Shown: positions 23,659-61,760 of the stretch, one piece after another
Layout: each line of letters starts with the position of its first letter
How positions within the stretch are numbered: position 1 is the first letter of the stretch
Assembly: GCA_964016885.1 (NCBI GenBank)
Contig: OZ024741.1
Coordinates: forward strand, 239,506,001 to 239,570,000
Direction: 5' to 3'
DNA length: 64,000 nt
Source of the DNA: Eledone cirrhosa
Taxonomy: Eukaryota
Position numbers and translations under genes: made by a program
The notes under the pieces: generated by a model
Databases searched by the model: none
What the model was told of the DNA's origin: nothing
Seen by the model: the letters and a program-made list of their open reading frames with translations, nothing else

Positions 23659-26600
23659 TTAACTAGCAACAACATCTGGTGTTGAAGGTAACTGTCTCTC
23701 TGGAGGTTTCACATATCTGTCTTGGTAATGGTCTCTCTCATTGTTGCTTGACACATCAGGTGGGACACCATAGATTCCTGAAACAAGTACATCAACTCAA
23801 CTTACTACAGAGTTCATATATATGATATTTACTGACTGCACGAATACTGTTAACTGGTGACATTAGGAGTTTCAGGTTTTTTAACATCAGATACTCTCAC
23901 CCAGGTGCCTCAGCCAGAATTTGTGGCCATGTGTCTCTTCCCATACATAGTGTGCATCTTCAAAATTACAGCTATTTTGAAGCAACTTCTGCTACCTCAG
24001 TGTGGTTAATGTGATGGTCCTTTGACAACTGGCTCCTGTAAAACCCAATAACATGTGGCTGTGTTAAGGGGATGGCCTAAAACCATCCTACCTCAATGGA
24101 CTTACACCTCATTTACTACCCATTGCTCTGGCAAACTTTCACAAGCCATGTATACATCATCCTCATCTTCTCATTGGCTTCCTTAATGCAATACTGTGAG
24201 GAAATGGAGAGTTCTATAAGAACTACCTGCTTGGAAGCTTCTGAGGACAGCAGTATGTCTGACCTTAGTGAAGCTGTGGTCAGTTTCTAGAAAGTTAAGT
24301 TATTTCCCCAAATCATTATGGATTGCATTACAACCTCCAGAAGATGGTCATAGCATCTACAGTGACACCCATTGTTCAGGGATTTGGGGCAGCTACTGAA
24401 GATGTGAACCAAGGTCAATTTTCCCTTGTACAAAGGGCAGGTTGGAGACTCCATCTTCCCCCAGCAGAACAAGTCTGTTGAGTTAGCAGAATGGCAATAC
24501 ACTGACAAAACTAAGAGGTTAATTTGATGGGGGGTTGGCTTTCCAAAGCTCAGGTCATAAAACTTTCCACATCAATGCTTAATCCCATCTTGTCTAGGCT
24601 CTCTATTGCTACATTCCAACCATCCTGCTGGGTCACTCCTTAATAAATATGTGTACCTCATTCTGGATCAACAATCATTAGTCCTTCACCTGAACTTTTC
24701 CATAGTGATATGTGCTGCTTCTTAGGTCAGCCCTTCCATGAGGCACTATACCCCCAAACACCTCGTGCTGTAGTCATGACTTTGCAGTATCCACAGACTA
24801 CACTAGCCTCTATTTCCATCTTGTCTTGACCCCAATACATACCTAAATGTCTTTTAGGTCACAAGACTCACAATATTGTTGAATCCCCATAATATGAGCA
24901 ACCATGAAGTCATGCTTCAGGCTACTGAAAGAGAATTTCAGTTTATGGTAATGCTTAAAGAGAGTGATGATTAAAACTTAATGACAGATTGTTTTGAAAT
25001 TGTTGAAACTATATGTTATAATGGCAAACATGAGTGTGTGAAATTGTTTTACCTGACATTGCTGGTATTTCTTCATACTGTCTACTTGACCTTTCACTCC
25101 AGCACTGTCCACTCTTACGACTGGTCAATGTATCAGTGGGATAGTTTGAAGATGGTCTGTTGTCTCCATAAGATGTCACCTCTATAGGTTGACTGTATTT
25201 CTGCAGTACAGTATAGTTAAATATATAGATAGGATGTAAACATATCATTTAAGACAATATATCTAATACATGCTAAATTTCCTATATTAATAGGTAAATG
25301 AATATTGTTAAAATATTAGACAATTGTATACAAAAGCATCAATTATATAGACCCGTCTACTTGATCATTTTCATTTATACCATAGAAAATGTATACAGTA
25401 CATTTTCTTTTATGGCTTACTCTAAGGTATAAAAGTCAACATTTCCTTTCTAGTTCTTCCTTTCTTAGTGATAAGTTCATATTGTGTGAGTTTGTGATAC
25501 AAGGTTGTAGTCATACCAGGCAGGAAATTTGAAAGGTATCCTTACAGAAGAACTGTTTACAGAGCAATCTGAATTCCAAAAAGATAGTCTCTTTTATAAT
25601 ATGTCAATAAGATATTACCTGTCTAAAAATGAAGTGATTCATAGGCTGTAATGTCTGAATACATCATTGATATTCCTGATGGGATTTTTAAAGGTTCATT
25701 AAACAAAATACATCTTAGAACATATAAACTACAGTAAATCTTGGATTATCTCAGATTTTAAAAACCAACAAAGTTCATTTCTCATCCCCACATCATAACC
25801 CTATTTTTCTAACAAAATAATAGTCTATATCATATATATCAATCAGTAAAGAATACTCATAAATTGATAATTTAAACTGTGCAAACTGAAATATTCAGCT
25901 TCATGATTCTTATTGAAATATTTCTGACTAACAGATAGAAAATATATAATATAGTTTACCTTTGTGGATTTTTGAAGAGATCTGTTCATTGTTGAGGTTT
26001 TCCAGTCTTCAGGATAGTAATGACTTCTAGACTGACTATATCTGTCTGATATCTCTCCTTGATTACCTGACATCACAGATACACTGTTGTTACCTTGATA
26101 GATCAACTGTCTCATCTCATTACGACATTGGTATGCCTGTTTCTCTTCTGTTGTTCTAGCTGAGTTATTTCTCACATTGTTACATCTCACAATACACAAT
26201 GTTATAGAAACCACAATAGCTATAGATACTATCACAGCTGCTACTACAATGATAATCAACAATGTTGCATCTATTGTGTTATCAGTTGGTACATGAACAG
26301 CTGTGAACATTGGTGATGTCTTGTTACTAACAGTCAGTGTTAAAGAGACACTAGTTGTTGCTGACAGAACTGGAGTACCACTGTCTTTCACAACAAACTC
26401 CAGTTGATATGATCCAGCATCATTTTGGTAAACTGTGCGAGAGTAAGATAAGACACCGGTGAATGAGTCCAGTTTAAATAACTGTCTCTCATTACCTGAA
26501 AGGATTTCATACCTGAGAAAAGCATTCATGTGACTGTCTATATCAGAGGCTTTCAGAAGTGTGATGTCATTCTTACTTTGTGGATGATAGTGGACATCAA

Positions 26601-28311: not shown

Positions 28312-30975
28312 CTCTGCTCCTGATGGTAATACAGTATCCTGGAGAAGTTACAGCTTCAAATATTCTATCTGAAACGGAAACAATTTCAATATATTAATGG
28401 AGTCTGATGTATTAAGTCTTGTCTTGCTTTTTTCATGAAATTCTCAGATTAAACTTAACATCTTGTACTTAGGAAATATCTGCTGTATCCTCAATATATT
28501 CTGGAAATACAGAGTGACAATTACAGTGATTTTGTCCTGCACTGAACATCCCAGTATTCTTCGACAGTAAAGGCTGTGCTGTCTGGGCCACATCCAACAC
28601 ATGAGCTGGCACCTGGCAGAAGGTTCGTAGACCAACCCAAGCTGCACAAAAATGATGCCTACATGAGAAATATGAAGGCACTCAATATTAATACAGAATT
28701 CTGGGCAATGCTATCGGATGACTAGTACCCTGAACTGGTAACATAAAATTATTGAAGCAAATCTGTTGGACATTGCAGAAGTAAAGTAAGCATAAAGAAA
28801 ATAGCACAGAAGTACCAACAGACCAACAAACACAGATAGGTGTGACCTCTATTTTAAATATAAAATAAACAAATTTAAACCTGCATCTATGTGTATTCTT
28901 TTGTTTTTAAATTAAAGTAAATTTTTAGTAAGATGATATCTACGTAATATTGGATTCAACTCACATATATTCCTCCTATTTTACATGAGATATTAAAATA
29001 GGAGTTCAGCGTGGAAACATGGACGTTAACCGATGATGATGAGGAGGATGATATCAAATTTTAATGGATAATATTAAGTTGGGAGACCTTTAAAATATAG
29101 ACATTACTTAGGATGACGTCCTGAGTTATCTCTCTTGAATAAGAAATAATTTCAGATATTACACAATTTTCAACAAAAACATTCTATAAAGGAAGAATAC
29201 AAATCAACATCATAACGAAGATATTAACCAATAATAGTAATAAGGATGAAAGGCAAAGTTAACCTCGGCGGGATTTGAACTCAAGACCGTCAAGGGACGT
29301 ATCTATGCTGGAAAGCATGGCGTCTGACTCCACCAATACTGCCAAACCAATAATAGTAATAATGTTGTGATGTTAGTCACCTATTGTGTATTCTGTAAAA
29401 CTGGACGGAATTACAGAATGAAATTTTTCAAGTATTATAATTTATATTAAATAGTATTGACAAGATATCTGTTGTCAAACTGCTACTGATATATTCAGGT
29501 ATATATTAAAAACTGAATCACATTTGATATTGTTAATATTACCACTTCAGTCATTGTTCACTTAGAAATAACACATAACATTTTATCAAAACCTGTAGTT
29601 AAATTAACGTTATAATTGAAATGTCATGGGAGTTGCCTTAAATAGAAATATTATTTTGACTGCATGAACTAATTGATTTTTAAAATTTGTTATATCAGCA
29701 ACTTGTAGTCTTTTTCATTTTGCTTATAAAATATTTATGAAATTAGAAATAAAATATGAAACAAGAGATAACCCTTTTTTAATAACAGGACTTCATAACA
29801 TTAAATTGTAACAGTATTTATCTGAATACATTATATTTAACATTTTATAACAGAATATATTTTAATCAAATTTCAAACTAATTTTTATAAAGTCACCAAA
29901 TTAACAAATTTCTATTTAACTGTTTTCTACAGTAGAAAATAAATAAAATGATGTGAAAAGAAAATCTAAAATAAATTCTTAATGAACTTCTTTTTCTAAT
30001 TATTTCTGAAAGATGAATAAAAAATATTTTGTGTCAACATTGTTAGTCACATATTAAATTGGTCCATCATGTGAATATTTGTTATAAAAGATTTACAACA
30101 TTGTTGTGATATAACCCTATGTAATCTACTCTACAGCAGATCTATAATCAAAAACATTTCTGCCACAACCATCCATAATTTGTGTTATGTTGCAAAAGAA
30201 AATATTTGACAGATTGAAATACATGTATGAATAGATAGCAAGCCACAATTAATACATCAATATTGCTTATGTAGGGTTAAAGCTAAAGAATCCTTATATC
30301 TTGTCTTCCTAAATGTTAATAAAAATTATAGCAGGAAATTATAGAAATAGAGGGGATAAATTTGTCCTATCTAAAACATATAAATGAGAGTATATTTAGA
30401 ACACTAAACATAATTTCAAAAATAGAATTCATAGAAATCAAATTAATACCCTCCTATAAGCTTCAATAGACATATACACAGAAATAAAGACTTACACACA
30501 CATTGTATATACACACATATACATATAAGTAAATATGCATGGGTGTATGTAGACATACAGCATTTTGTATATAATCTTATAATACTCTTACCAACATTAC
30601 TGTATATATTTCACAATCATTCTTGTTCAATATTTAGTATGTACTAAGAGCATACAATGTATGATTGAATAATTCAGTAAAAATATATAATGATGAATTA
30701 TGTTAAAAGATAATAAACAGGATAAATATTGTAAATACATCAAAGATGACAGCAAATATTGTGAGAAGTATGTTATATAAAACTACAATTCAACATATAT
30801 TCCTCTCCCTCACTGTTTCTTACAAAATACTTGATACCCATGTTGGTAAAGAAGACATTCAGTGAGAACTAACACGGATCTAATATGGCCACCATTATAG
30901 TTTGATAATATAATATAGCTATATATGAAATTATTATTTTACATGACTGGATAAATATGAAATAATAGAACTTAC

Positions 30976-31390
30976 ATTCATTGTGTAAAATCCTTTGTTA
31001 TAAACTGTGAGTTGGTCCCAATGTTCTGTTGTTAATGGTTGTCTGTGTCACTGCTGCTATGGTGTGACAATGGCTTCATGTTGATGGAATAGTGTTGGTA
31101 GTGAGTCAGTGGGAACCAGCAGTTCCTCTCAGTCTTCAATGTGTATGTGATGTTTACTGAGTGTGAGTGTGTGTGAGTATGAGAGAGAGGTGGGGAAGGG
31201 TGATGCTTACACCAGCTTCACTCAGAATAGATGTGTTTCCCCTCACAGAGAAGAGGGAGAGAGAGAGAAGACACAATATCAGCTCCACTAACAGTCAGCC
31301 ATAATATGTCTATATAATAAAAAACATGTCTAATGTAGAGACTGACATAGAAATACTTCGAGAGAGGTTATATTAACAAAATATGGCTGA
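30976..31390 (-). promoter_or_regulatory. Conserved promoter + putative leader exon of gene E (exon ~31158-30976)
   Basis: Same block; donor at 30976/30975; large exon begins at 28368. Confidence 0.6.
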
Positions 31391-31726
31391 TGTTAATATG
31401 TGTGTAATTTAAAATGTAAATAAAATATTAACAATAATAGTTAACATGTCTGACCTAATTACAAACTAACTTTCCTATTCAGAATATATTTAGAAAATTT
31501 TAAAGATGATATGTAATCTATGTAAAATATATTAACATTTACAATAATGTATTTACTATTTATTTAGATTTAAATTCAATTTACCAGGGAAGTAGTCTAT
31601 TATTCCTAAACAAATTTCACTTACATTTCCATTAATATTATCAACTAACTAATATATTTTTGTTGTTTTAACTATTCTCTGAAGATTGAAGGTGATATTT
31701 CTGTTGTGTTAACTTCTCAGTCTGAC

Positions 31727-33786
31727 TTAACTAGCAACAACATCTGGTGTTGAAGGTAACTGTCTCTCTGGAGGTTTCACATATCTGTCTTGGTAATGGT
31801 CTCTCTCATTGTTGCTTGACACATCAGGTGGGACACCATAGATTCCTGAAACAAGTACATCAACCCAACTTACTATATAGTTCACAAAGACAGTCAATAG
31901 TTATTTACTGACCTCAGTTATCAATCTTTTATCCACTAGATTCACTGGATTAAGATATATAATATCAATCATTAAAGAATTAATAGTACACCATACAATT
32001 ACATCTTTACAATCTTAAACACATCAATAAACCACTGACTAGTTGAATAAAACAATAGATTTAGTAATTTAAAATCAATATAAAATTCATCAAAATATTA
32101 GTCATATATTAGTAGAAATATATTGACAAAATGAATAAAAATAACAAATTATGAACATCAGAACACAATGTTTTGTTTAAAGCATACTTTGATATGTAAC
32201 ACTGAGAAAGATGATCAAGATATTGTTTTACCTGACATTGCTGGTATTTCTTCATACTGTCTACTTGACCTTTCACTCCAGCACTGTCCACTACTCTTAT
32301 GACTGGTCAATGTATCAGTAGGATAGTTAGAAGATGGTCTGTTGTCTCCATAAGATGTCACCTCTATAGGTTGACTGTATTTCTGATTTAAAATAGTTAC
32401 AAGATAGAGTATAGGGATATTTAGGACAATGTACCTAAAATATACTAAATTTTGAGATATTGATGAGCACATGTATACTTTTGAAATATTCAATTATTTA
32501 TTATAAAAGAATCAACTATGTAGATCCTCTTTATTTGATCCTTTTTCATCATACCAAAGAACATGTTGCAAATAATTATTTCATAGCTTACTCTGAAAAA
32601 TTTAACTACTTATACCTATTTTCAGTGCAAATTTGGAGGTATAACAGGTAGGAAATTTGACATGTTTGTCAACAGAAATACAGTTTCCTAAACAATCTGA
32701 AATTATCCAAAATAGATGATAGAGTTAAAATCCTATTGACAAAGTTACACTGGCAACAAATGTCAAGATTCTGGCTCCACAGTGTATGACTGCATCCTTG
32801 ATTCTGTTGACATTGCACTCATTAAATTTACCAAAAAAATATGTACAACATCGATTATCTCATATTTTAAACATAAACTGAACACCATATGATAATGTTA
32901 TTTTTTTGCCATCAGGTATTCTATATTAAAATCAATCAAAAATTAAACAGCAACCTTAAATTGGTAATTCAAACAGTACTATAAAATACTAGCTGATGTA
33001 CCCGACTTAGGCTGGGAGAACAATTAAGAGAAAACAGATAATAGAGAAAACGATTGTATTTGATGTGTTGTCTGGTTTACAGTATGAGGTGAGACTGTGT
33101 GTGTGAGAGAGAGAGAGACATAAAAAAAAAATAATAAAACTTCCTTATTAGGCTGGGTGAGTAAACTGCTGATTAAATGGCAGCATTGGCCTTGGATTTT
33201 AAATGTGAAATAAGCACAGTTAGCATGACCTTTTTCAGCTGCAAAAGACATCATCTGAAACGCAGCAATATACTGCATAATATTGCTTCTGAAGTGTTTA
33301 GTTTCGTTAGTATGGTCTGTAAGCAGTATATGGATAAAAGCTGAAGGGTCCTCTATCAGTGGAAGTCTGACATTTCCTCCTAAAGAACATATGCCAAGTG
33401 TAATATCCATGCTACCAATCGCAACTTTAGGATCATTTCTATAATTCTTCAATGGCTCATATGAAAATGTAGCTCTTAGCCAGTATATTCTGCCTTGAAG
33501 AGTCGTTTGGGCTCGTCGAGTTTGCATCATTTGCATACTGAGCGAGTTACGGCTGGCCTTGCCGAATATAGAAAATAAAATTGGAATTTTATTTCTCGCC
33601 CTAGCAGACTTTAATTGTATCGCTCTCTGTATAACGGCCTATCTCTGCCTCTCTCTCTCACTTTAGATGTGTGTGTGTTCATTATGTCAGTCGTCAGTGT
33701 GTACGCACACACACACACTCTCACATACACACACACACATATACTTGTCAGTCATCACATTTATATGTATGTGTAGATGTGTATGT

Positions 33787-39856: not shown

Positions 39857-42800
39857 TTAACTGACAACATCTGGTGTTGAAGGTAACTGTCTCTCTGGAG
39901 GTTTCACATATCTGTCTTGGTAATGGTCTCTCTCATTGTTGCTTGAGACATCAGGTGGGACACCATAGATTCCTGAAACAAGTACATCAACTCAACTTAC
40001 TACAGAGTTCATATATATAATATTTACTGACTGCACGAATACTGTTAACTGGTGACATTAGGAGTTTCAGGTCTTTTAACATCAGATACTCTCACCCAGG
40101 TGCCTCAGCCAGAATTTGTGGCCATGTGTCTCTTCCCATACATGGTGTGCATCTTCAAAATTACAGCTATTTTGAAGCAACTTCTGCTACCTCGGTGTGG
40201 TTAATGTGATGGTCCTTTGACAACTGGCTCCTGTAAAACCCAACAACATGTGGCTGTGTTAAGGGGATGGCCTAAAACCATCCTACCTCAATGGACTTAC
40301 ACCTCATTTACTACCCATTGCTCTGGCAAACTTTCACAAGCCATGTATACATCATCCTCATCTTCTCATTGGCTTCCTTAATGCAATACTGTGAGGAAAT
40401 GGAGAGTTCTATAAGAACTACCTGCTTGGAAGCTTCTGAGGACAGCAGTATGTCTGACCTTAGTGAAGCTGTGGTCAGTTTCTAGAAAGTTAAGTTATTT
40501 CCCCAAATCATTAAGGATTGCATTACAACCTCCAGTAGATGGTCATAGCATCTACAGTGACACCCATTGTTCAGGGATTTGGGGCAGCTACTGAAGATGT
40601 GAACCAAGGTCAATTTTCCTTTGTACAAAGAGCAGGTTGGAGACTCCATCTTCCCCCAGCAGAACAAGTCTGTTGAGTTAGCAGAATGGCAATACACTGA
40701 CAAAACTAAGAGGTTAATTTGATGGGGGGTTGGCTTTCCAAAGCTCAGGTCATAAAACTTTCCACATCAATGCTTAATCCCATCTTGTCTAGGCTCTCTA
40801 TTGCTACATTCCAACCATCCTGCTGGGTCACTCCTTAATAAATGTGTGTACCTCATTCTGGATCAACAATCATTAGTCCTTCACCTGAACTTTGCCACAG
40901 TGATATGTGCTGCTTCTTAGGTCAGCCCTTCCATGAGGCACTATACCCCCAAACACCTCGTGCTGTAGTCATGACTTTGCAGTATCCAGACTACACTAGC
41001 CTCTATTTCCATCTTGTCTTGACCCCAATACATACCTAAATGTCTTTTAGGTCACAAGACTCACAATATTGTTGAATCCCCATAATATGAGCAACCATGA
41101 AGTCATGCTTCAGGCTACTGAAAGAGAATTTCAGTTTATGGTAATGCTTAAAGAGAGTGATGATTAAAACTTAATGACAGATTGTTTTGAAATTAGATGT
41201 TATCATAGAAAAATTGAATGAATGAAATTGCTTTACCTGACATTGCTGGTATTTCTTCATACTGTCTACTCGACCTTTCACTCCAGCACTGTCCACTCTT
41301 ACGACTGGTCAATGTATCAGTGGGATAGTTAGAAGATGGTTTGTTGTCCCCATAAGATGTCACCTCTATAGGTTGACTGTATTTCTGCAGTACAATATAG
41401 TTAAAATATAGATAGCATAAGAGAAATCAAATGCTGTGTGCAGGAGAGGCGGTTGCGCTGGTATGGACATGTGATGCGTATGAAGGATGAAAGCTGCATA
41501 AAAAGGTGCAGAGCACTAGAAGTTGATGGAAACCGCGGAGTGGAGAGACCCAAGATGACCTGGGATGAGGTGATAAAAGCCGACCTTACCCAATTACACC
41601 TCTCAAAGGCAATGACACACGACCGTGACCTCTGGCGTCACGCAGTAATACAGAGTACCCGACCTCCCATGGGTACAAGCTGAAGCATATAGACAATATG
41701 CCCCCACCGCAAGGTGGTCGTGGAGGTGCCACGGCAAAAAAGCACCACCCAGCCCACACTGTAAAGTGGACGTGTAGGCGCCACGAAAAAGCACCCAGCA
41801 CTCACTGTAAATGAGGTTGGTGTTAGGAAGGGCATCCAGCTGTAGAAATCAAGCCAAATCAGTTCCTGTATGAGCAAGGCATGGTCAGCCGACCAGACAC
41901 TGCCCACAACAGGACAACCCGTCTCACCCATGCTAGCGTGGAAGAACGGACGTAAAACGGTGATGATGATGATGATGATAGCATGTAAACATATCATTAA
42001 AGACAATATATCTAATATATACTAAATTTCCTATATTGATAGGTACATGAATATTGTTAAAATATTAGACAATTGTATACAAAAGCATCAATTATATAGA
42101 CCCTTCTACTTCATCATTTTCATTTATACCATAGAAAATGTATACAGTACATTTTATTTTATGGCTTACTCTAAGGTATAAACATTTCCTTTCTTGTTCT
42201 TCCTTTCTTAGTGATAAGTTCATATTGTGTGTGAGTTTGTGATACAAGGTTGTAGTCATACCAGGCTGGAAATTTGAAAAGTACCATTACAGAAGAACTG
42301 TTTACAGAACAATCTGAATTCCAAAAAGATAGCTAATATCTTATTGACATAGTATAAAAGAGACTGTCTAAAATCAAAGTGATTCATAGACTGTAATGTC
42401 TGAAAACATCATTGATATTCCTGATGGGATTTTTAAAGGTTCATTAAACAAAATACAACTTAGAACATGAAAACAACAGTAAATCTTGGATTATCTCAGA
42501 TTTAAAAAAAAAAACAAAAATTCATTTCTCATCTCCACAACATAATGGGTTTTTTTTTCAACCAGAAATAGTTTATATTATATAAATCAATTAGTAAAGA
42601 AATTAGTAATTTAAACTGTGCAAACTAAAATATTCATGTTCATGATACTTATTGAAATATACACACGTGGACATGCCAACAAAGTCAGAAAACAACACAG
42701 CTCCCATGACTTTCGGAAACATTTTTTCACACTCAGAGTTGCTGAATCATGGAACAAACTATCTGCATCAGTTGTTAGCTGTCGAGACACTGCATCCTTT

Positions 42801-45379
42801 AAAACCTCCATGCATCCTGAGATTCGCCAGCACTGCACCTGATGTCCCCCCTCCATACACACGCACACGTATTTCATGACTCATACACTATTCAATACAC
42901 TGTTCATTATCAAGACATTTAAACATTATTCTATGTACTATACATGCACCTTTGATGAGCTATAGTGCACCTGAGCACTGTACACACTAATTTCATTATT
43001 ATTATTAAAATATATAATATAGTTTACCTTTGTGGATTTCTGAAGAGATCTGTTCATTGTTGATGTCTTCCAGTCTTCAGGATAGTAATGACTTCTAGAC
43101 TGACTATATCTGTCTGATATCTCTCCTCGATTACCTGACATCACAGATACACTGTTGTTACCTTGATAGATCAACTGTCTCATCTCATTACGACATTGGT
43201 ATGCCTGTTTCTCTTCTGTTGTTCTAGCTGAGTTATTTCTTACATTGTTACATCTCACAATACACAATGTTATAGAAACCACAATAGCTATAGATACTAT
43301 CACAGCTGCTACTACAATGATAATCAACAATGTTGCATCTATTGTGTTATCAGTTGATACATGGACAGCTGTGAACATTGGTGATGTCTTGTTACTAACA
43401 GTCAGTGTTAAAGAGACACTAGTTGTTGCTGACAGAACTGGAGTACCACTGTCTTTCACAACAAACTCCAGTTGATATGATCCGGCATCATTTTGGTAAA
43501 CTGTACGCGAGTAAGATAAGACACCAGTGAATGAGTCCAGTTTAAATAATTGTTTCTCATTACCTGAAAGGATTTCATACCTGAGAAAAGCATTCATGTG
43601 ACTGTCTAGATCAGAGGCTTTCAGAAGTGTGATGTCATTCTTACTTTGTGGATGATAGTGGACATCAAGAGTGAAAGGGTCAACACTAGGAAATGTAAAA
43701 TATGGAGCATTATCATTTTTATCTAATACTTCCACTTCAACATTTACTGTGTTATTTAGAGATGGTGTTCCATTGTCTTTGACTAAAACCTCAAAGTCAT
43801 AGAAATCTCTGTGTTCTCTGTCTAAAGATTGGTTTGTTGAAATAAAGCCAGAGTTGATAATCTGGAATGGTAGACGATATTGGTGTTTATTTCTCAGATA
43901 ATAACTTAATTCACCTCCCTTACCAACATCTGGGTCTGTAGCATTGATAAAACCAATAGGGAAATTAGCTTTGTCATTCTCATAGGTAAGGAACTTGAAT
44001 GTATCTTTGGTAAAGTGTGGTTTTACATCATTCACATCTAACACTTGTATTGAGAGATCTTTATCAGTTTTGAGAGGAGGTAATCCTTTATCTTGACAGG
44101 AGACAGTAAAGTGATAATGTTCCTGTGTCTCTCTGTCTACTGCTTTCTTTAGAACTATTTTATATTCCTTAGATCCCATTGACTGTAATTTGAATGTATC
44201 ATGTTTGATATTACAGCTGACCTCTCCATTATGTCCAACATCATTGTCAGTGACCATCACATAAGCAATGAAACTACCAACTTTGATATCTTCCAGAATG
44301 GTAGCTGTGTTGTGATTCTCTGTAGAAATATAGTTGACATCAATATTTGGAGGATTGTTGTGTTGGTTGATAACATTTACCATAACAGTTGCTATGGCAC
44401 TGAGAGGAGGGCTGCCTTCATCTCTAGCTTCAATATATAATTTAAAAGACTCTTCTATATCCATTTCTGAAAATTTAGCTAAATACAACTTTCCAGTATT
44501 TTCATCTAAATTGAAGTGTTTTGTCACCTTTTCAATAGTTTTCCTAGCAAAATAGAAAGATATTTTACCATTCCTGCCAGTATCTAAATCTTTTGCAGAT
44601 AATGTCACTACTGGAATATTCTTTTTATGGTCATGTTTTATAGAGACATTGTAGATACTTTTGGAAAATTGTGGTGGGTTATCATTTTCATCTTCTACAG
44701 ATATTTTAACATTTAAAATACTTTGTTTTGGTGGAGTTCCTCCATCTTTAGCAATGACTTCAATATTGTAGCTGTCTTTTTTTTCTCTGTCTAATTTATC
44801 TTTCAAAATAATTCCTATTGTTGATATTTCATCAGTTTGTTTAGAGACTGATAAGGAAAAATATTCATTATGCTTTTTTAATTCATATGTAATTAAGCTG
44901 TTCTCATATCCCACATCTTTGTCAACAGCATTAGGTATGGCTTTCTTCATACCTTTACCATCTCCTTCCCTAAAATTAAGTGTGATGTCTTTCTCAGGAA
45001 ACTCAGGTTGGTGGTCATTGATGTCTTCTATTATGACTTTAATTTTTAATATCTTCATAAATGTCTTGGATTTGTGAACAGCAACTTTAACTATTTCAAA
45101 ACATTCTTTCTCATAACTACACACAGACTCAGCATCCAATGTCTGAACAGTGTACAGTTTACCTGTTTTTGTCACATTGAACAATTGTTCTCCCTTTTGT
45201 TGTAGTTGACTAAATGTAATTAAATCCTTATTCTGTAAGAAGGAGCTATCTGATGTCTGTAAGTCAGTAGCAATGTCCCCTATATAAGTATAGGGATTAC
45301 TCTCTTCTTTAACATGGTATGTGATATCTTCACTTAGATAACAGTGAAACAAAGTCAGTAAAATACACAGAAATAACAT
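39857..45379 (-). CDS. Pcdh: Protocadherin gene G, ~871 aa (ends PDVVS*)
   Basis: Exons 45379-43028, 41384-41237, 39972-39857 (3 nt shorter); intact frame. Confidence 0.93.
40035..41140 (-). mobile_element. Second copy of the RLE-type retrotransposon fragment (co-duplicated with the gene)
   Basis: Nearly identical to 23840-24945 and at the same position in the last intron. Confidence 0.7.
41419..41976 (+). mobile_element. 5'-truncated RTE-clade LINE
   Basis: QERRLRWYGHVMRM...GNRGVERPKMTWDEVIKADL is typical of the RTE C-terminus; (GAT)n tail; flanking direct repeat gatagcat; absent from the same intron of genes D and E. Confidence 0.8.
42660..43006 (+). mobile_element. 3' fragment of a CR1/L2-like LINE
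   Basis: TRGHANKVRK...RKHFFTLRVAESWNKL...FK, a CR1-group C-terminal signature; (ATT)n tail. Confidence 0.75.
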
Positions 45380-46638: not shown

Positions 46639-48385
46639 TAAACAGTATTGATGTCTATTGACTAACTGCTATTGATATATTCAGATATATATTAAAAACT
46701 AAATCAGATTTGATATTGTTAACATTACTACTTTAATAATTCTTCTCTCAAATATGATACATAATATTCTCCACTAATACTGCCAAACCAATAATAGTAA
46801 TAATGTTGTGATGTTAGTCACCTATTGTGTATTCTGTAAAACTGGACGGAATTACAGAATGAAATTTTTCAAGTATTATAATTTATATTAAATAGTATTG
46901 ACAAGATATCTGTTGTCAAACTGCTACTGATATATTCAGGTATATATTAAAAACTGAATCACATTTGATATTGTTAATATTACCACTTCAGTCATTGTTC
47001 ACTTAGAAATAACACATAACATTTTATCAAAACCTGCAGTTAAAATACTTTATAATTGAAACGTCATGGAAGTCACCTTAAATAGAAAGAATTATTTCGA
47101 CTGCATGAACTAATTAATTTTTAAAATTTGTTATATCAGCAACTTGCAGCTTTTTTTCATTTTGCTTACAAAGTATTTATGAATTAAAGTATGAAACAAG
47201 AGATAATGCATTTTTCGTAACAGGACTTCATAACAATAAATTGTGGAAGTATTAATCTGAATATATTAAATTTAACACTATAACAGAATATATATATTTT
47301 GTTTAAATATCAAACTAACAAATTTCCATTTAACTGTTTTCTACAGTAGAAAATAAATAAAATGATGTGAAAAGAAAATCTAAAATAAATTCTTAATGAA
47401 CTTCTCTTTCTAATTACTTTTGAAGTATGAATAAAAAAATTTTGTGTCAAACATTGTTAGTCACATATTAAATTGGTCCATCATGTGAATATTTGTTATA
47501 TAAGATTTACAAGATTATTGTAATTTAACCCAATGTAAACTACTCTACAGTAGATCTAGGTTCAAAAACATTTCTGCCACAACCATCCATAATTTGTGTT
47601 ATGTTGCAAAAGAAAATATTTGGCAGATTGAAATACATGTATGAATAGATAGCAAGCCACAATTAATACATCAATATTGCTTATGTAGGATTAAAGCTGA
47701 AGAATCCTTATATCTTGTCTTCCTAAATGTTAATAAAAATTATAGCAGGAAATTATAGAAATAACAGGGATATATTTGGCCTACTATCTAAAACATATAA
47801 ATGAGAGTATATTTAAAACACTAAAGATAATTTCAAAAATAGAATTCATAGATATCAAATTAATATCTTCCTATAAGCTTCAATAGACATGTACACAGAA
47901 ATAAAGACTTACACACACATACACATATGTGTATGTGTGTGCGTGTGTGTATAGACATACAGAATTTTGTATATAATTTTATAATACTCTTATCAACATT
48001 ACTGTATATATTTCACAATCATTCTTGTTCAATATTTAGTATGTACTAAAACCATATAATGTCTAACTGAATAATTCAGTTGAAATATATATTGAGTTAT
48101 GTTAAAATATAATAAACAAAATACATATTGTAAATACATCAAAGATGATAGCAAATATTTCCAGAAGTATGTTATATAAAACTACAATTCAACATATATT
48201 CCTCTCCTTCATTGTTTCCTACAAAATACTTGATAGCCATGTTGGTAAAGAAGCCATTCAATGAGAAATAACAAAAATCTAATATGTCCACCATTGCAAT
48301 ATTATATTTTGATGTTTTAATATAGCTATGTATGAAGTTATTATTTTACATGACTGGATAAATAATATAGAATAATAAAACTTAC

Positions 48386-48795
48386 ATTCATTGTGTAAAA
48401 TCCTTTGTTATAAACTGAGTTGGTCCCAATGTTCTGTTGTTAATGGTTGTCTGTGTCACTGCTGCTATGGTGTGACAATGGCTTCATGTTGATGGAATAG
48501 TGTTGGTAGTGAGTCAGTGGGAACCAGCAGTTCCTCTCAGTCTTCTGTGTATGTGTGATGTTTACTGAGTGTGAGTGTGTGAGAGAGAGAGATGTGAGGG
48601 AGGGTGATGCTTACTCCAGCCTCACTCAGACTAGATGTGTTTCCCCTCACAGAGAAGAGGGAGAAAGAAGACACAATATCAGCTCCACTAACAGTCAGCC
48701 ATAATATGTCTATATAATACCAACATGTCTGATGTAGAGAGACTGACATAGAAATACTTAGAAGTGAGAGGTTATATTAACAAAATATGGCTGAT
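48386..48795 (-). promoter_or_regulatory. Conserved promoter + putative leader exon of gene G (exon ~48566-48386)
   Basis: Same block; donor at 48386/48385; large exon begins at 45436. Confidence 0.6.
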
Positions 48796-49102
48796 GTTAA
48801 TCTTTGTGTAATATAAAATATAAATACAATATTGACAATAATGGTTAGTGTGTCTGACCTAATTCAGGATATACTTAGAAAATGTTAAAGATGACATGTA
48901 ATCTATGTAAAATATAATGTATTTTGTATTTATTTAAATTTATATTAAAATTCAATTTACCAGGGAAGTAGTCTATATTATTCCTATACAAATTTCACTT
49001 ACATTTCCCTTATTATTATCAACTAACTAATATACTTTTGTTGTTTTAACTATTCTCTGAAGATTGAAGGTGATATTTCTGTTGTTAATTTCTCAGTCTG
49101 AC

Positions 49103-52100
49103 TTAGTTACCTTCAACACCAGATGTTGTTGCTAGTTGTCTCTCTGGAGGTTTCACATATCTGTCTTGGTAATGGTCTCTCTCATTGTTGCTTGACACAT
49201 CAGGTGGGACACCATAGATTCCTGAAACAAGTACATCAACCCAACTTACTATATAGTTCACAAAGACAGTCAATAGTTATTTACTGACATCAGTTATCAA
49301 TCTTTTGTCCGCTAGATTCACTGGATTAAGATATATAATATCAATCATTAAAGAATTAATAGTACACCATACAATTACATCTTTACAATCTTAAACACAT
49401 CAATAAACCACTGACTAGTTGAATAAAGCGATATATTTAGTAATTTAAGACAAACATTAAATTATCAAAATATTAGTCATATATTAGTAGTAATATAGTG
49501 ACAAAATGAGTAAAAATAATTATGAACATCAGAACACAATGCTTTTTTTAGATAATACTTTGATATGTAACACTGAGAAAGACGATAAACACAGTAATAA
49601 AGATATTGTTTTACCTGACATTGCTGGTATTTCTTCATACTGTCTACTTGACCTTTCACTCCAGCACTGTCCACTACTCTTACGACTGGTCAATGTATCA
49701 GTGGGATAGTTAGAAGATGGTCTGTTGTCTCCATAAGATGTCACCTCTATAGGTTGACTGTATTTCTGATTTAAAATACAGTTACAAGATAGAGTATAGG
49801 GATATTTAGGACAATGTACCTAAAATATACTAAATTTTGAGATATTGATGAGCACATGTATACTTTTGAAATATTCAATTATTTTTTATAAAAGAATCAA
49901 CTATGTAGATCCTCTTTATTTGATCCTTTTTCACCATACCAAAGAACAAGTGTACCACCATGCATTTTGGTGGTAAAAACCCAGCGTCCACATACACCCT
50001 CCACAACACTAATATCAAGAAGTCTTCTTGTGAACGTGACCTGGGTATTACTGTCAGCAGCGATTTGCGTTGGATTAAGCACGTCTCTAGCATTGTCAAG
50101 AAGGCTGAGGGTGTCTTAGCATCACTCAACAAGACTTGTCAGCCGCTCTCCAGCTATCTATTTAAAGCTGTCATCATCATCATCTTTGTTTAACGTCCAT
50201 TTTCCATACTACCATGGGTTATAGCTATAGTGCGGCCACACTTAGAATTTGAATCACCAGTCTGGAACCCGTATCTTGCTCAGAACATTGATGGCCTGGA
50301 AACTGTTCAGAGATGTGCAACCAAGTGAATACCCTCCATCAGGCATCTACCTTACTCTGAACGCCTTGCTTCCCTGGGCATGGATACATTGAAGCTCCAA
50401 CGTCTGGCAACTGACTTGGTAAACACCCACAAAATTATTAACCATCTTGCCAACAACAACCCTGAGTACCTTTTTGACTTCCATGTGGACATGCCTACAA
50501 AGTCAGAAAATAGCACAGCTCCCATGACTTTCAGAAAGATTCTTTCACACTCAGAGTTGCTGAAGCATGGAACAAACTACCTGCATCAGTTGTTAGCTGT
50601 CGAGACACTGCATCCTTTAAAACCTCCATGCTTCCTGAGATTCACCAACACTACAGCTAATATCTCCTCCCCATACACACGCACACATGTATATTATGGC
50701 TCATACACTATTCACTTCCCTGACATTTGTATATTATTCTATGTACTATACATGCACCTTTGGTGAGTTGTAGTGCACCTGAGCACTACACAATAATTTC
50801 ATTATTATTATATAACATATTCCAAATAATTATTTCATAGCTTATTCTGAAAAATATATCTAAATATACCTTTTTTAGGTCTATCTTAATATTGTGGGTG
50901 AGTATGTAGGTTTTTAGTGCAAATTTGGAGGTATAACAAATTTAGCATGTTTGTCAACAGAAGTACATTTTCCAAAACAATCTGAAATTATCCAAAATAG
51001 ATGATACCAGTGTTAAAATCCTAGTGACAAAGTTGCTCTGGCGACAAATGTCAAGATTCTGGCTCCAGTGTATGACTGCACCCTTTTTTTACAATTCTGT
51101 TCACATTGTACTCGTTAAATATTAATTTACAAAAAAATAGGTATAACATGGATTATCTCATATTTTAAACAAACTGAAAATATCAGCACCTGATAATGTT
51201 TTTTTTTTTTTCCACCAGATATTCTATATTAAAATCGATCAGAAATTAAGCAGCAACCATAAATGGGTAATTCAAACAGTAATATAAAATATTAGGTTTT
51301 ATCATACAAAGTTAAACATTATTTATTAATAGAAAGAAAATATAAAAAATAGGTTACCTTTGTGGATTTCTGAAGAGATCTGTGCATTGTTGATGTCTTC
51401 CAGTCTTCAGGATAGTAATGGCTTCTAGACTGACTATATCTGTCTGATATCTCTCCTCGATTACCTGACATCACAGATACACTGTTGTTACCTTGATAGA
51501 TCAACTGTCTCATCTCATTACGACATTGGTATGCCTGTTTCTCTTCTGTTGTTCTAGCTGAGTTATTTCTCACATTGTTACATCTCACAATACACAATGT
51601 TATAGAAACCACAATAGCTATAGATACTATCACAGCTGCTACTACAATGATAATCAACAATGTTGCATCTATTGTGTTATCAGTTGGTACATGGACAGCT
51701 GTGAACATTGGTGATGTCTTGTTACTAACAGTCAGTGTTAAAGAGACACTAGTTGCTGCTGATAGAACTGGAGTACCACTGTCTTTCACAACAAACTCCA
51801 GTTGATATGATCCGGCATCATTTTGGTAAACTGTGCGAGAATAAGATAAGACACCAGTGAATGAGTCCAGTTTAAATAATTGTTTCTCATTACCTGAAAG
51901 GATTTCATACCTGAGAAAAGCATTCATGTGACTGTCTATATCAGAGGCTTTCAGAAGTGTGATGTCATTCTTACTTTGTGGATGATAGTGGACATCAAGA
52001 GTGAAAGGGTCAACACTAGGAAATGTAAAATATGGAGCATTATCATTTTTATCTAATACTTCCACTTCAACATTCACTGTGTTATTTAGAGATGGTGTTC

Positions 52101-53709
52101 CATTATCTTTGACTAAAACCTCAAAGTCATAGAAATCTCTGTGTTCTCTGTCTAAAGACTGGTTTGTTGAAATAAAGCCAGAGTTGATAATCTGGAATGG
52201 TAGATGATATTGGTGTTTATTTCTCAGATAATAACTTAATTCACCTCCCTTACCAACATCTGGGTCTGTAGCATTGATAAAACCAATAGGGAAATTAGCT
52301 TTGTCATTCTCATAGGTAAGGAACTTGAATGTATCTTTGGTAAAGTGTGGTTTTACATCATTCACATCTAACACTTGTATTGAGAGATCTTTATCAGTTT
52401 TAAGAGAAGGTAATCCTTTATCTTGACAGGAGACAGTAAAGTGATAATGTTCCTGTGTCTCTCTGTCTACTGCTTTCTTTAGAACTATTTTATATTCTTT
52501 AGATCCCATTGACTGTAGTTTGAATGTATCATGTTTGATATTACAGCTGACCTCTCCATTGTGTCCAACATCATTGTCAGTAACCATCACATAAGCAATG
52601 AAACTACCAACTTTGACATCTTCCAGAATGGTAGCTGTGTTGTGATTCTGTGTAGAAATATAGTTAACATCAATATTTGGAGGATTGTTATGTTGGTTAA
52701 TAACATTTACCATAACAGTTGCAATGGAACTAAGAGGAGGGCTGCCTCCATCTCTGGCTTTTATGTATAATTTAAAAGACTCTTCCATATCAATTTCTGA
52801 TGATTTAGCTAAATACAACTTTCCAGTATTTTCATCTAAATCAAAGAATCTTTTCGTTTTCTCTGAAGTTGTCATTGCAAAATAGAAAGATATTTTACCA
52901 TTGCTGCCAACATCTAAATCTTTGGCAGATAATGTCACTACTGGAATATTCTTTTTATGTTTATGTTTTATAGAGACATTGTAGATACTTTGAGAGAATT
53001 TTGGTATATTATCATTTTCATCTTCTACAGATATTTTAACATTTAAAATACTTTGTTTTGGTGGAGTTCCTCCATCTTTAGCAAGGACATCAATGTTGTA
53101 ACTGTCTTTTTTTTCCCTGTCTAATTTCTTTTCTAGAATAATTCTTAATGTTGATATTCCACCAGCTTCCTTGGAAACACTTAACGAAAAGTGTTCCTCG
53201 TCATGTTTCAGTTCATACTTAATTAATCTGTTCTGATACCCAACATCTTTATCCACAGCATTTTCTATTGATCTCTTGGTGCCTTTTCCATCAGTTTCAG
53301 AAAACTGAATATTCACTTGTTCAGTTGGAAACTTAGGTTGGTGGTCATTGATGTCTTCTATTATTACTTTAATTTTTAATATCTTCATAAATGTCTTTGA
53401 TTTGTGAACAGCAACTTTCACTATTTCAAAACATTCTTTCTCATAACTACACACAGACTCAGCATCCAATGTCTGAACAGTGTACAGTTTACCTGTTTTT
53501 GTCACATTAAACAATTGTTCTCCCTTTTGTTGTAATTGACTAAATGTAATTAAATCCTTATTCTTTAAGAAGGAGCTATCTGATGTCTGTAAGTCAGTGG
53601 CAATGTCCCCTACATAAGTATAGGGATTACTCTCTTCTTTAACATGGTATGTGATATGTTCACTTAGATAACAGTGGAAGAAAGTCAGTAAAATACACAG
53701 AAATAACAT
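49103..53709 (-). CDS. Pcdh: Protocadherin gene H, ~873 aa, variant C-terminus QLATTSGVEGN*
   Basis: Exons 53709-51358, 49765-49615, 49221-49103; terminal exon carries a 33-bp in-frame inversion. Confidence 0.92.
49948..50813 (+). mobile_element. Longer 5'-truncated CR1/L2-like LINE
   Basis: KCTTMHFGGKNP...ERDLGITVSSDLRWIKHV, VRPHLEF, VWNPYL and the same 3' end and ATT tail as the other copies. Empty site in gene F near 32560. Confidence 0.8.
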
Positions 53710-55760
53710 CTTGCTCTTGATGTTAAAACAGAGTCCATGGAAAATTACAGCTTCAAATATTCAATCTAAAACAAAGAACAAATATTTTTCATGTTAATGA
53801 AGTATTGTTTTATTTGCATAAAGAGAAGATTGTATTATACCACATTTAACTGTTTGTAAAATAAATATATTAATCAATGAAAGTGATTGTACAAAATTTC
53901 AATATTTGTATTGTTATTTATGGATATAAACCAGTCACAATTTTGTGGTCTTTCTATTATAACATTTCCAGTATATGGTGTATAGGTTTAGATAAGAAGT
54001 CTGTAGTAAACTTATTAACATGTGTAATTCCTAAGGTAGATTACTTTATCGTGTAATAAATATAAGATAGCCATATTCTGAGCCAGGTGATAGCTACATC
54101 ACATCAGATTTAGATGAATTTCTGCAGATTGTTTAATTAAACTTCAACGTAGCTTATTTATATTCTATATAGGAATTGAAAATTGGTTGCAATCCAGAAA
54201 ATTGTTAAAATATAAACACAATTCATAGGGAAACTAGTAGGAAGTTATGAATTATCTCCCTTATATATACTATAAAGTACACCTAAATTATGTTTAACAA
54301 AACAAAAATCTACAGGAAGATCTTTGTCACTGTTGATCCATTGATTTATTACTATTAATAAAATTAGATTTCTATTTTAAACTGAAAAAAAAAAATTTTA
54401 TATTGTTAACATTTATATTCAATAAAATTATAGACTTAATATCTTGGATATCTCCTTCAATAGGAATTCTTTAAAACAATATCAATTATCACTTGACACC
54501 TCTATTTACTACATAAACAGCTTCCTTATGTGTCAAAACCACTTTTATATAACAGAGGTTCATTAGATTAAAATCTAACAATATTTAGCAGAAACCTTTT
54601 AATTTTTCATATAAAACCCAAATATATTTTTTGCATAAATATCAAACTAATTTTAAATCATACCACCTAATGTAAGATATATTTACTGAAAATAAAGTAT
54701 TTGTTTTCTATAATTGAAAATAGATGTAAAAATAGGGAAAAATCTAAAACAAATTTTTTTATGACTTATTCTGAAGTAGAAATAAAATATTTGGTACCAT
54801 CTTTTTAAGTCATACTGTTATTTAGTCATGTAGATATTTTTTACATCAAACCTACCAGATTGATGTTATTTAACCCTATGTAAGCTCCTATCTAGCAGAC
54901 ATTATCAAAAGCATTTCAGTCAAGACCACAACCTCTATTTTTCTAAATATAATTTTGTGTTACAAAAGGAAATATATGATATCTTACAGTAGTATCTAAA
55001 TAGATAACAGGCCATAATTAATATATCTATATTCTTTACAAAGATTTAAGACTACAGATTCCTCATTTTTTACTGAATTAATGAATATTAATTTTTGTAA
55101 TTATTCAAATATACTTCTGACATGTTACCATAAAAGTATAAAGATACATATTTTGTTGAAACAAATCATACACAAATATATGTAAGGCAAATTTGTAAAT
55201 TTTAACAAGTAAAACTAATTTATATAAAAGAAACTATTAACACTAATTTTCACATGATATTATAGCAATGAGTAGACATATACAAAAAATATACACAGTT
55301 ATTTCAGATATGAAAATACTAATATTTTATAACAAATTTTCTTATCTATCAAGAATATTTAGGTAAAACCTATATTATTGAATGTATTTCAATAATATTC
55401 TAGTTCAATATTTAGTATGTAATAAGACCATACAATGTCAGACTGAATAATTTAGTAAAAATATATAATGATGAGCTATGTTAAAATATGATAAACAAGA
55501 TAAATATAGTAAACAAATCAAAGATGACAGCAAATATTTTCAGAAGTATGTTATATTAAACTATAATCCAACATATATTCCTCTCTCTCACTGTTTCTTA
55601 CAAAATAGTTGATAGCCATGTTGGTAAAGAAGACATTCAATGAGAACTAGCACAGATCTAATATGGCCACCATTACAATATATTTTGATGTTATAATATA
55701 CTATGTATGAAGTGATTATTTTACATGACTTGATAAATAATAAGCAATGATAAAACTTAC

Positions 55761-56170
55761 ATTCATTGTGTAAAATCCTTTGTTATAACTGTGAGTTGGT
55801 CCCAATGTTCTGTTAATGGTTGTCTGTGTCACTGCTGCTATGGTGTGACAATGGCTTCATGTTGATGGAATAGTGTTGGTAGTGAGTCAGTGGGAACCAG
55901 CAGTTCCTCTCAGTCTTCAATGTGTATGTGTGATGTTTACTGAGTGTGAGTGTGTGTGAGAGAGAGAGGTGGGGGAGGGTGATGCTTACTTCAGCCTCAC
56001 TCAGACTAGATGTGTTTCCCCTCACAGAAAAGAGGGAGAGAGAGAGAAGACACAATATCAGCTCCACTAACAGTCAGCCAAATGTCTATATAATAATATG
56101 TCTGGTGTAGAGAGACTGACATAGAAATACTTAGAAGAGAGAGGTTATATTAACAAAATATGGCTGATGT
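55761..56170 (-). promoter_or_regulatory. Conserved promoter + putative leader exon of gene H (exon ~55941-55761)
   Basis: Same block; donor at 55761/55760; large exon begins at 53765. Confidence 0.6.
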
Positions 56171-56765: not shown

Positions 56766-59700
56766 TTAACTAGCAACAACATCTGGTGTTGAAGGTAACT
56801 GTCTCTCTGGAGGTTTCACATATCTGTCTTGGTAATGGTCTCTCTCATTGTTGCTTGACACATCAGGTGGGACACCATAGATACCTGAAAGAAATAATTC
56901 AATTCAACTTACCACATAGTTCACATAGACAATAGATATCTTCTGACATTAATAATCCATCTCTTGTCCAGTCTGATATAAAATGACAATTATTAAAAAG
57001 GTTCTTTTTGACCATCCCTAAAATTCTTCAAAATTATAAACATAAATTATTATAATGATAATAATAAACATGGAAAATGAAATGTTTTTACCTGACATTG
57101 CCGGTATTTCTTCATACTGTCTACTTGACCTTTCACTCCAGCACTGTCCACTACTCTTACGACTAGTCAGTGTATCAGTGGGATAGTTAGACGATGGTCT
57201 GTTGTCTCCATAAGATGTCACCTCTATAGGCTGACTGTATTTCTGCTGTAAAGTTAGTTAAAACAGATTGTAAAGGTATTTATAATATTGGATATGAAAT
57301 GTATGCAATATCTAGGTAAAAATCAGTACATGTTAACTGTTGAAATATGGTACAACCATCTACAAAAATATCAATTGTCTTTTACAAATATTCTAATGAT
57401 TCCACTACATTATTGTCAAATTTCTGCAGGACAATTCACAAGGGGATTTCAAACTTCCAACTTAAATCCTTCCTTCCAATCCTACCACACAAAATGGATT
57501 CATTATACATTAGTCAAAGTCTTATGTATTGCAAATAATTATTTCATAGCACACTGTAAGTGTGGTTGGTGTTAGCAAGGGCTTCCAGCCATAGAAAACC
57601 AGCCAGAAACACCCCTATATGAGCGAAACACTGTCACCCGACAACTTGCCTCAAAATAGGATCCACCTAACCCATGCTAGTGTGGAAGATATACGCTAAT
57701 CGATGATGATGATGATGATGACTTTTAATGAATAAAGGTTCACATGGTCTTTTGACCTCACCGTTAATGGTGATAATATAAATTTATATTGTGCATGAGT
57801 TTGCAGTGCAAGGTAGGAATGACAAGAGGTACAGAATTAAGGAGATGTGTCTTCTGGATAACAGGTTAGAAGAATCTGAATAGTACAAAGTAGGGAGGTT
57901 CCACAATTTTAGACAACAACCTATTGAGAAATAAATTGCATTCTGCAATGTAATATGTAATATATATATGAATCTTCTAGTGGTATCCTTCTTAAACATT
58001 CTTTTACCAACAAATAGCTTACAATTAGCAAACAGCAGTAAATCTTGGATTAACACACATTTAAAACATAACCCGTCTAAACCCATGCTAGCATGGAAGA
58101 TAGACGTTAAACGAATATATACAATATTTATTTCTATATCATAACAATTATTTCTAACAAGACATATTCTTTTAAAAACTCTGGAGACATAAAATTTGCC
58201 TAAATTGGTAATTTAAATAGTAACTAAGAGAATAAACATTATTTAATAGCAGATAAAAGATATTGAATAGACTTTACCTTTGTAGATTTTTGAAGAGATC
58301 TGTTTATTGTTGATGTCTTCCAGTCTTCAGGATAGTAATGGCTTCTAGACTGACTATATCTGTCTGATATCTCTCCTTGATTACTTGACATCAGAGATAC
58401 ACTGTTGTTACCTTGATAGATCAACTGACTCATCTCATTACGACATTGGTATGCCTGTTTCTCTTCTGTTGTTCTAGCTGAGTTATTTCTTACATTGTTA
58501 CATCTCACAATACACAATGTTATAGAAACCACAATAGCTATAGATACTATCACAGCTGCTACTACAATGATAATCAACAATGTTGCATCTATTGTGTTAT
58601 CAGTTGATACATGGACAGCTGTGAACATTGGTGATGTCTTGTTACTAACAGTCAATGTTAAAGAAACACTAGTTGTTGCTGACAGAACTGGAGTACCACT
58701 GTCTTTCACAACAAACTCCAGTTGATATGATCCGGCATCATTTTGGTAAACTGTGCGAGAGTAAGATAAGACACCGGTGAATGAGTCCAGTTTAAATAAT
58801 TGTTTCTCATTACCTGAAAGGATTTCATACCTGAGAAATGCATTCATGTGACTGTCTATATCAGAGGCTTTCAGAAGTGTGATGTCATTCTTACTTTGTG
58901 GATGATAGTGGACATCAAGAGTGAAAGGGTCAACACTAGGAAATGTAAAATATGGAGCATTATCATTTTTATCTAATACTTCCACTTCAACATTCACTGT
59001 GTTATTTAGAGATGGTGTTCCATTGTCTTTGACAAAAACCTCAAAGTCATAGAAATCTCTGTGTTCTCTGTCTAAAGACTGGTTTGTTGAAATAAAACCA
59101 GAGTTGATAATCTGGAATGGTAGACGATATTGGTGTTTATTTCTCAGATAATAACTTAATTCACCTCCCTTACCAACATCTGGGTCTGTAGCATTGATAA
59201 AACCAATAGGGAAATTAGCTTTGTCATTCTCATAGGTAAGGAACTTGAATGTATCTTTGGTAAAGTGTGGTTTTACATCATTCACATCTAACACTTGTAT
59301 TGAGAGATCTTTATCAGTTTTCAGAGAAGGTAATCCTTTATCTTGACAGGAGACAGTGAAGTGATAATGTTCCTGTGTCTCTCTGTCTACTGCTTTCTTT
59401 AGAACTATTTTATATTCCTTAGATCCCATTGACTGTAATTTGAATGTATCATGTTTGATATTACAGCTGACCTCTCCATTATGTCCAACATCATTGTCAG
59501 TGACCATCACATAAGCAATGAAACTACCAACTTTGATATCTTCCAGAATGGTAGCTGTGTTGTGATTCTCTGTAGAAATATAGTTGACATCAATATTTGG
59601 AGGATTGTTGTGTTGGTTGATAACATTTACCATAACAGTTGCTATAGAACTGAGTGGTGGACTGCCATCATCTCTGGCTTTTATGTATAATTTAAAATCT

Positions 59701-61269: not shown

Positions 61270-61760
61270 TACGCCTTTCTTTCCTGGCATGGATACATTA
61301 AAGCACCGATATCTGGCAACTGACTTGGTAGACACCGATAAGATTATTAATCATCTTTCCAACAACAACCCTGGGCAGCTTTTTGAATTCCATGTCTAAC
61401 ACCCATGGACATGATTACAAAATCAGAAGAAGTACAGCTCACATGACTTTCGGAAACATTTTTTCAAGCTCAGAGTTGCTAAAGCATGGAACAAACTACC
61501 TGCATCAGTTAGCTGTTGGGGCACTGCATCCTTCAAAAATTCCATACTTCCCAAAATTCACCAACACTACACCTCATATTCCTCCTCTATACACACACAT
61601 GCATGTGTGTGTGTCTGTGTGTATATCATGACTCATATACTGTTCACTTTCAAGACATTTGTACATTATTCTATGTACTCTCCATGCACCTTTGATGAGT
61701 TATAATGCACCTGAACACTACACAATAATTTCTATTATTATTATTATTATTATTATTATT
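61270..61760 (+). mobile_element. 3' fragment of the CR1/L2-like LINE family
   Basis: Similar to 50360-50813; long (ATT)n tail. Confidence 0.7.

Follow-up and report, generated by a model that had tools for sequence, protein, structure and literature searches.

The window, by which we mean the whole 64-kb stretch of DNA analysed here, is an octopod clustered-protocadherin array carried on the minus strand. Eight genes (B-I), all on the minus strand, are complete in the window, and a ninth is represented by its beginning; each gene has four exons, the first non-coding, the second 2.35 kb long and the last two short, encoding the tail. The genes are head-to-tail whole-gene duplicates, with exons 2-4 of their own in 8/8 complete genes; open frames of 871-873 codons are found in all eight, and there is no N in the window. 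The gene of interest, H, consists of the following parts, listed together with its closest sister, F:

55761..56060, minus strand: conserved, non-coding block of gene H taken as its first exon and putative promoter
51358..53709, minus strand: large exon of gene H (signal peptide, cadherin repeats, TM and proximal tail; 784 codons)
49615..49765, minus strand: exon 3 of gene H, 151 nt
49625..49639, minus strand: YEEIP codons, a Src-family SH2 ligand predicted by motif match, intact in H
49103..49221, minus strand: exon 4 of gene H, the last coding exon, 119 nt, with the stop TAA at 49105-49103
46769..49951, minus strand: 3' block of H in common with gene F (29328-32566), used to date the inversion
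31727..31845, minus strand: exon 4 of gene F, the closest sister of the H tail, in standard orientation

The splice predicted between exons 3 and 4 of H (49220/49614) is seen, with GT..AG ends, in contigs assembled from sequencing runs of relatives (X1, X2). In the large exon, a Pfam Cadherin_2 domain at 19-99 is accompanied by five Cadherin stretches, and a TM motif lies at 686 of the protein. When the octopus-specific protocadherin patterns for EC1, EC5, EC6 and TM were compared with H (PMC6339937, Table S2, from the part of the supplement available), 6/7 ectodomain and TM patterns matched, the first EC1 pattern being the one that failed. Homologues were taken as the best 120 of 2425 hits, from 8000 scored candidates; among the matches listed, the top places go to protocadherins of Octopus sinensis (87%), O. 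bimaculoides, O. vulgaris and Argonauta hians, with 84-87% identity in O. sinensis, O. bimaculoides and A. hians. The source of the window would thus be an octopod distinct from these four. According to the excerpted text of Albertin et al. 2022 (PMC9068888), octopod arrays consist of duplicates of entire genes and have been moulded by both duplication and gene conversion. The present array agrees with such clusters in its head-to-tail, multi-exon, homogenised duplicates (PMC9068888; Styfhals et al. 2019, PMC6339937; both in part), but differs from them in that the last 9 residues of H match no homologue in the protein set examined.

Homogenisation is uneven along the genes. Mean pairwise identity amounts to 97-98% for EC1, the 3' two-thirds of exon 2 and exons 3 and 4, to 85% for EC2 and to 71-76% for the intron ends. 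Diversity is confined to EC2-EC3 (codons about 100-350, e.g. 52660-53410), where siblings differ pairwise by 9-18% and changes are rich in non-synonymous ones; EC1 and the part from EC4 to the tail are 96-99% identical among siblings. In vertebrate clustered protocadherins EC2-EC3 is the specificity region, which the octopod EC2-EC3 diversity recalls. The non-coding first-exon/promoter block of 320 bp is 92-95% identical among the eight genes (e.g. 55761-56060, 48386-48681, 2182-2471), and these blocks carry short upstream ORFs, one of which ends across the first splice junction. A 3-bp deletion (one Ser) common to exon 3 of genes D, E and G (16772-16919, 25053-25200, 41237-41384) serves as a conversion marker.

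In this setting, the end of gene H stands apart. The features of the change are:

49105..49137 (minimal form 49106-49136), minus strand: in-place micro-inversion of 31-33 bp, covering the last 9 codons of gene H
49114..49128: hairpin with a 5-bp stem and a 5-nt loop, at the exact centre of the inverted segment
49138..49140, minus strand: weak inverted repeat of 3 bp flanking the segment, left arm (GAC)
49100..49102, minus strand: the same flanking repeat, right arm (GTC), 2 nt off the inversion edge

The segment 49105-49137 reproduces, base for base in reverse complement, the 33-mer that stands on the plus strand at 2955, 8512, 16229, 23661, 31729 and 56768. A search of the window with the standard 33-mer gave seven matches (six on the plus strand, one on the minus strand) without a single mismatch, compared with 0 expected in 100 shuffles, which confirms the exact reversal noticed in the preliminary description. 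Six of the eight tail exons are thus standard, one (H) is inverted and one (G) has a 3-bp deletion within the segment. The reversal changes QLPSTPDVVAS into QLATTSGVEGN, 7 of the last 9 residues being altered; translation thereby bears out the earlier claim of a rewritten C-terminus with frame, length and TAA stop preserved. The segment being quasi-palindromic about a 5-bp hairpin, the inversion alters only 13/33 bases, and 20/33 positions read the same in both orientations. Were the 13 differences separate substitutions, the probability that all of them would match the reverse complement by chance would be ~6e-7. The end bases, A and T, are complementary; therefore, the breakpoints are ambiguous and the event spans 31-33 bp, the minimal form (49106-49136) leaving the TAA stop untouched. 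No substitutions private to the inverted segment were found. Across 136,146 aligned paralogue columns (159 HSPs), this was the sole in-place inversion of 8-60 bp. The statement that it is the only large change in a homogenised tail holds in this sense, and has to be narrowed in another, since 3-bp in-frame deletions are also present in tails (exon 4 of G; exon 3 of D, E and G).

The preliminary description had proposed looking for the inverted form in related species. Among 173 homologous proteins from three Octopus species and Argonauta, matches to an anchor just upstream of the inversion gave 89 tails, a count that includes isoforms and duplicate models and hence does not represent independent observations; the tail residues of H occurred in 0/89. 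The pattern [RK]xLPxxP is kept in 85/89 tail occurrences of this set, and the remaining four lack it through point changes and form one apparent orthologous group in O. vulgaris, O. sinensis, O. bimaculoides and A. hians. A protein search with the last exon of H returned ten longer proteins, none aligned over more than 88% of the query, and gave no match among proteins of 23-76 residues. As the standard tail is present in 6/8 paralogues and in homologues from four other octopods, outgroup comparison shows the inverted tail of H to be the derived state.

Sequencing runs were searched with 49030-49221 (19 sampled words). The search returned 24 runs from 11 studies, with a best share of 0.16 and none at half or more. 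No RNA run was among those listed, which says nothing for or against expression of H. In contigs of four runs from relatives (X6, X1, X2, X9), loose ends in the standard orientation occur at the inversion edges, and among the contig pieces listed from these runs, which show presence only, none bridges the inversion in the H orientation. Pieces of run X6 over the H intron differ at 12/112 and 27/167 letters, and none of the four runs was shown to be conspecific. Such results could be expected if the inversion were an assembly or library artefact, absent from the animal: the inverted tail is seen neither in the proteins examined nor in the listed contig pieces of four relatives, and H has three other private deletions, of 1-2 bp, in non-coding conserved blocks. 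We nevertheless regard an artefact as unlikely. The absence of N and the open frames in 8/8 genes speak for high base accuracy, flanking repeats of 1-3 bp would give a graph-based mis-orientation no anchor, and polishing with paralogue reads would be expected to push the sequence towards the standard form. Moreover, the human short template-switch candidates that were inspected were all confirmed as reliable assembly, according to the excerpted text of PMC5453318.

The age of the change can be approached through gene F. H and F differ at 7/384 flanking bases, whereas the other siblings differ from H by 15-30% in non-coding flanks. Broken down by part, the differences from F number 3/200 in the final 200 nt of intron 3 (1.5%), 0/84 in exon 4 before the inversion and 4/100 after the stop; for the other six siblings, 45-54 differences from H were counted in roughly 190 intron bases and 13-28 beyond the stop. 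Marks specific to H in these flanks are a 2-bp deletion in the 3' UTR near 49085 and a repeat junction near 49950. The block common to F and H is 3.2 kb long and takes in the last part of intron 2, the two tail exons, intergenic sequence and the first exon of the following gene, yet the EC2 regions of the two genes are only 80% identical. Judged from this distribution, the block is the product of a recent long exchange, by conversion or unequal crossover. As the flanks of H are ~98% like those of F, and F is in standard orientation, the inversion most simply postdates the exchange and is likely young. F may have been converted back later, which would void this dating; a conversion-type site 13 nt after the stop already differs between F and H. 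The suggestion that the variant had so far escaped gene conversion is thus better replaced by one in which it is too young to have been overwritten: H's flanks are 98% identical to those of standard-orientation F, and escape need not be invoked because youth suffices. The inverted tail is probably near-neutral and liable to overwriting by conversion.

How could such a segment be turned round in place? It is quasi-palindromic, with 10/16 symmetric positions complementary, among them those of a CAACA/TGTTG stem that encloses a 5-nt loop precisely in the middle; the hairpin folds on the gene strand in the standard copy, and on the plus strand in H. At the centre of the segment 6/7 inner pairs are complementary, and this is the sole such centre among 343 in exon 4 and its flanks; the same value is reached by 0.23% of centres in the big exon and by 0.35% of those in the window. 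With the ambiguous end pair left out, 9/15 pairs remain, a figure reached by 0.9-1.4% of centres. The flanking inverted repeat consists of 1 bp (A/T) abutting the segment, followed by the 3-bp GAC/GTC with a 2-nt offset. A strong cruciform was considered and rejected, as the 71-nt region folds no better than shuffles (z -1.2 to +0.6).

The preliminary description had attributed the event to a template switch. The exact reverse complement and the centring on the exon's best hairpin support a single-step inversion, by template switch or related repair. One plausible course would begin with a stall or break at the hairpin. The weak homology at the ends (GAC/GTC and A/T) might then let the nascent or broken strand pair with the opposite one, 31-33 bases would be copied backwards from the latter, and re-annealing in register could be helped by the 20 positions that are identical in both orientations. 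A replication switch and microhomology-mediated break-induced repair (MMBIR) are indistinguishable here. It may also be imagined that two close breaks excised the fragment, which was then re-ligated blunt by end joining. The near absence of flanking repeats and the clean junctions would fit such an event; on the other hand, it leaves the hairpin centring unexplained, and two breaks about 20-30 nt apart were judged highly unlikely in the available text of PMC8755829. We hold end joining to be very improbable.

Events of the inferred kind, i.e. single-step inversions by copying, have been described elsewhere. In the excerpts of PMC8755829, 59 definite human-chimp microinversions of 17-33 nt are reported, 45 of them exact copies; 0/59 were coding and all had flanking inverted repeats, and microhomology-mediated break-induced repair was argued for where the repeats are short. 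The event in H is likewise an in-place, length-neutral, exact reverse complement within the 17-33-nt range, and the bubble that defines microinversions there (>=15 nt matching the ancestral reverse complement) is 31-33 nt long in H, with 0 mismatches. It departs from that set in being coding, in having its best stem inside the segment and in its flanks, the human-chimp repeats being 3-75 nt long and usually abutting, as against 1 bp abutting and 3 bp offset in H. The four-point template-switch model includes pure fragment inversion (Loytynoja and Goldman 2017, PMC5453318; Walker et al. 2021, PMC7954356), and, as in that model, one event accounts here for a cluster of 13 apparent substitutions. 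In the gold-standard set of these papers, as far as excerpted, length-neutral events make up 5.5%, the median copied length is 12 and events are scarcer than expected in coding sequence, whereas the change in H is 31-33 nt long and coding. In S. cerevisiae, spacer inversions by template switch within coding DNA replace up to 5 residues (Abraham and Hazkani-Covo 2021, PMC8604942, in part); like the one in H, they exchange adjacent amino acids in a single event. However, the yeast cases have arms of >=10 bp in the derived strain, spacers of 2-5 bp and <=5 residues replaced (PMC8604942), and H has 7 residues replaced, without long arms, in an animal tandem array. For avian microinversions of 5-38 bp, the excerpted text of PMC3123225 gives no stem-loop association at hotspots. 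The mutation class is known; an animal example that lies in coding sequence and alters 7 residues is a rarity. Our literature search found no earlier in-frame exonic micro-inversion changing amino acids, and no octopus case among the papers listed.

The consequence for the protein depends on what the tail does. In the standard tail YEEIP is followed, about 35 residues later, by RQLPSTP, both being predicted ligands by motif match. Phosphorylated YEEIP is an optimal Src-family SH2 ligand (PMC4140816, in part), and the class I SH3 ligand pattern is +xxPxxP (PMC3658277, in part); the form R/K-x-x-P-x-x-P is present in RQLPSTP of the standard copies and absent in H. The preliminary description was thus right that the RxLPxxP motif is lost and YEEI kept, YEEIP being intact in exon 3. 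The PxTP overlapping the predicted SH3 ligand, which we take to be a proline-directed kinase consensus, is lost in H as well. The pair of YEEIP and RQLPSTP is conserved in the subfamily across three Octopus species and Argonauta (e.g. 56766-56884), and suggests Src-family SH2/SH3 docking as an intracellular pathway. KPLPA[VLI]P or KPLPKVP forms the end of other octopus protocadherins (9/120, among the best 120 of 2425). The intracellular partners of octopus protocadherins were called unexplored in PMC6339937, and the motif table in the available part of its supplement does not contain YEEIP or RQLPSTP. The pair was also not found in our literature search, although Albertin et al. 2015 and Wang and Ragsdale 2017 may note tail motifs. 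With the predicted SH2 ligand kept and the predicted class I SH3 ligand lost, the H tail is likely to represent a partial loss of function, which would be buffered by at least seven sister genes.

It is tempting to see selection in the retention of frame and stop. Length is kept because any in-place inversion preserves it, and when inversions of 17-33 nt were simulated in exon 4, 1001/1530 (65%) remained open to the same stop, 397 of these losing the motif. Since this outcome is expected in 65% of cases by chance, it is no sign of selection, and we rejected that argument. A selected signalling variant, in which H would be retained as an SH2-only, SH3-less isoform resisting gene conversion, could still draw on other observations. 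The coding sequence of H is intact, with an 873-codon frame free of stops and frameshifts; its private changes are 12 synonymous and 4 non-synonymous, and dN/dS over codons 351+ is 0.17, compared with 0.12-0.17 in siblings. By these measures H is under purifying selection and as constrained as its siblings. Motif-less tails have been tolerated long-term in the family, in the orthologous group of four species mentioned above (4/89), and in 44/77 YEEI-bearing homologues among the best 120 of 2425 the final 40 residues contain no class I motif. In addition, conversion tracts could be held up by 13 mismatches within 31 bp. Against this stand the frequency of frame retention by chance, and the 0 own substitutions of the segment in flanks ~98% like F, which leave little time for selection to show; template switches are also described, in the excerpted text of PMC8604942, as mimicking positive selection without adaptation. 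Taken together, these points make a selected variant quite unlikely.

A decaying gene might also be imagined. An upstream ATG at 53738, present in H alone and accompanied by a private 1-bp deletion just before the ATG, opens a 17-codon out-of-frame ORF over the true start (53685-53738, minus strand), which might lower translation of H. If H were an early-stage hypomorph or silent copy, the tail change would be unconstrained passenger damage, and the upstream ATG with its deletion, as well as the repeat insertions in intron 2 of H, would find their place. However, private changes show no excess of non-synonymous ones (12:4), and the splice sites and first-exon block are intact, even if conversion could mask decay. 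We consider such a state of H very unlikely.

In the light of these comparisons, the tail of H, known here from the assembly, shows a real-looking and derived micro-inversion, probably young and probably made by template switch or MMBIR seeded at the hairpin; it is likely to be a loss-of-motif allele buffered by its sisters. A further-reaching version, in which the hairpin-seeded micro-inversion made a fixed and expressed SH2-only isoform of a two-part Src-family tail, shielded from conversion by the 13 mismatches, we think improbable. If a fixed SH2-only isoform did exist, it would open a route to intracellular diversity in an array with otherwise homogenised tails, and would provide a natural mutant ready for testing cephalopod protocadherin signalling. 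What the evidence describes so far is a single allele, probably young, of a redundant array rather than a new system. It offers a teaching example of one mutation posing as 13 substitutions, which would mislead dN/dS estimates or variant calling. The YEEIP and RQLPSTP pair may matter more, since it points to Src-family kinase docking as a testable idea about the intracellular partners of octopus protocadherins.

A separate matter is gene G (exon 39857-39972), where a 3-bp net deletion within 39857-39890 (minus strand) turns VVAS into VVS before the stop, a second change at the same hairpin arm. A template-switch origin of this deletion was dropped, as it would be simpler for a VVVS-type tail to have lost a single GTT unit; VVVS-type is the commonest homologous tail ending (33/89). 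Fragments of a repeat element, presumably LINE-like by eye, are common to intron 2 of H, intron 2 of G and the region upstream of I (50361-50811; 42661-43013; 61271-61746). In intron 2 of gene F, a 204-codon stop-to-stop frame at 33024-33638 (minus strand) is putatively transposon-like, as judged by eye.
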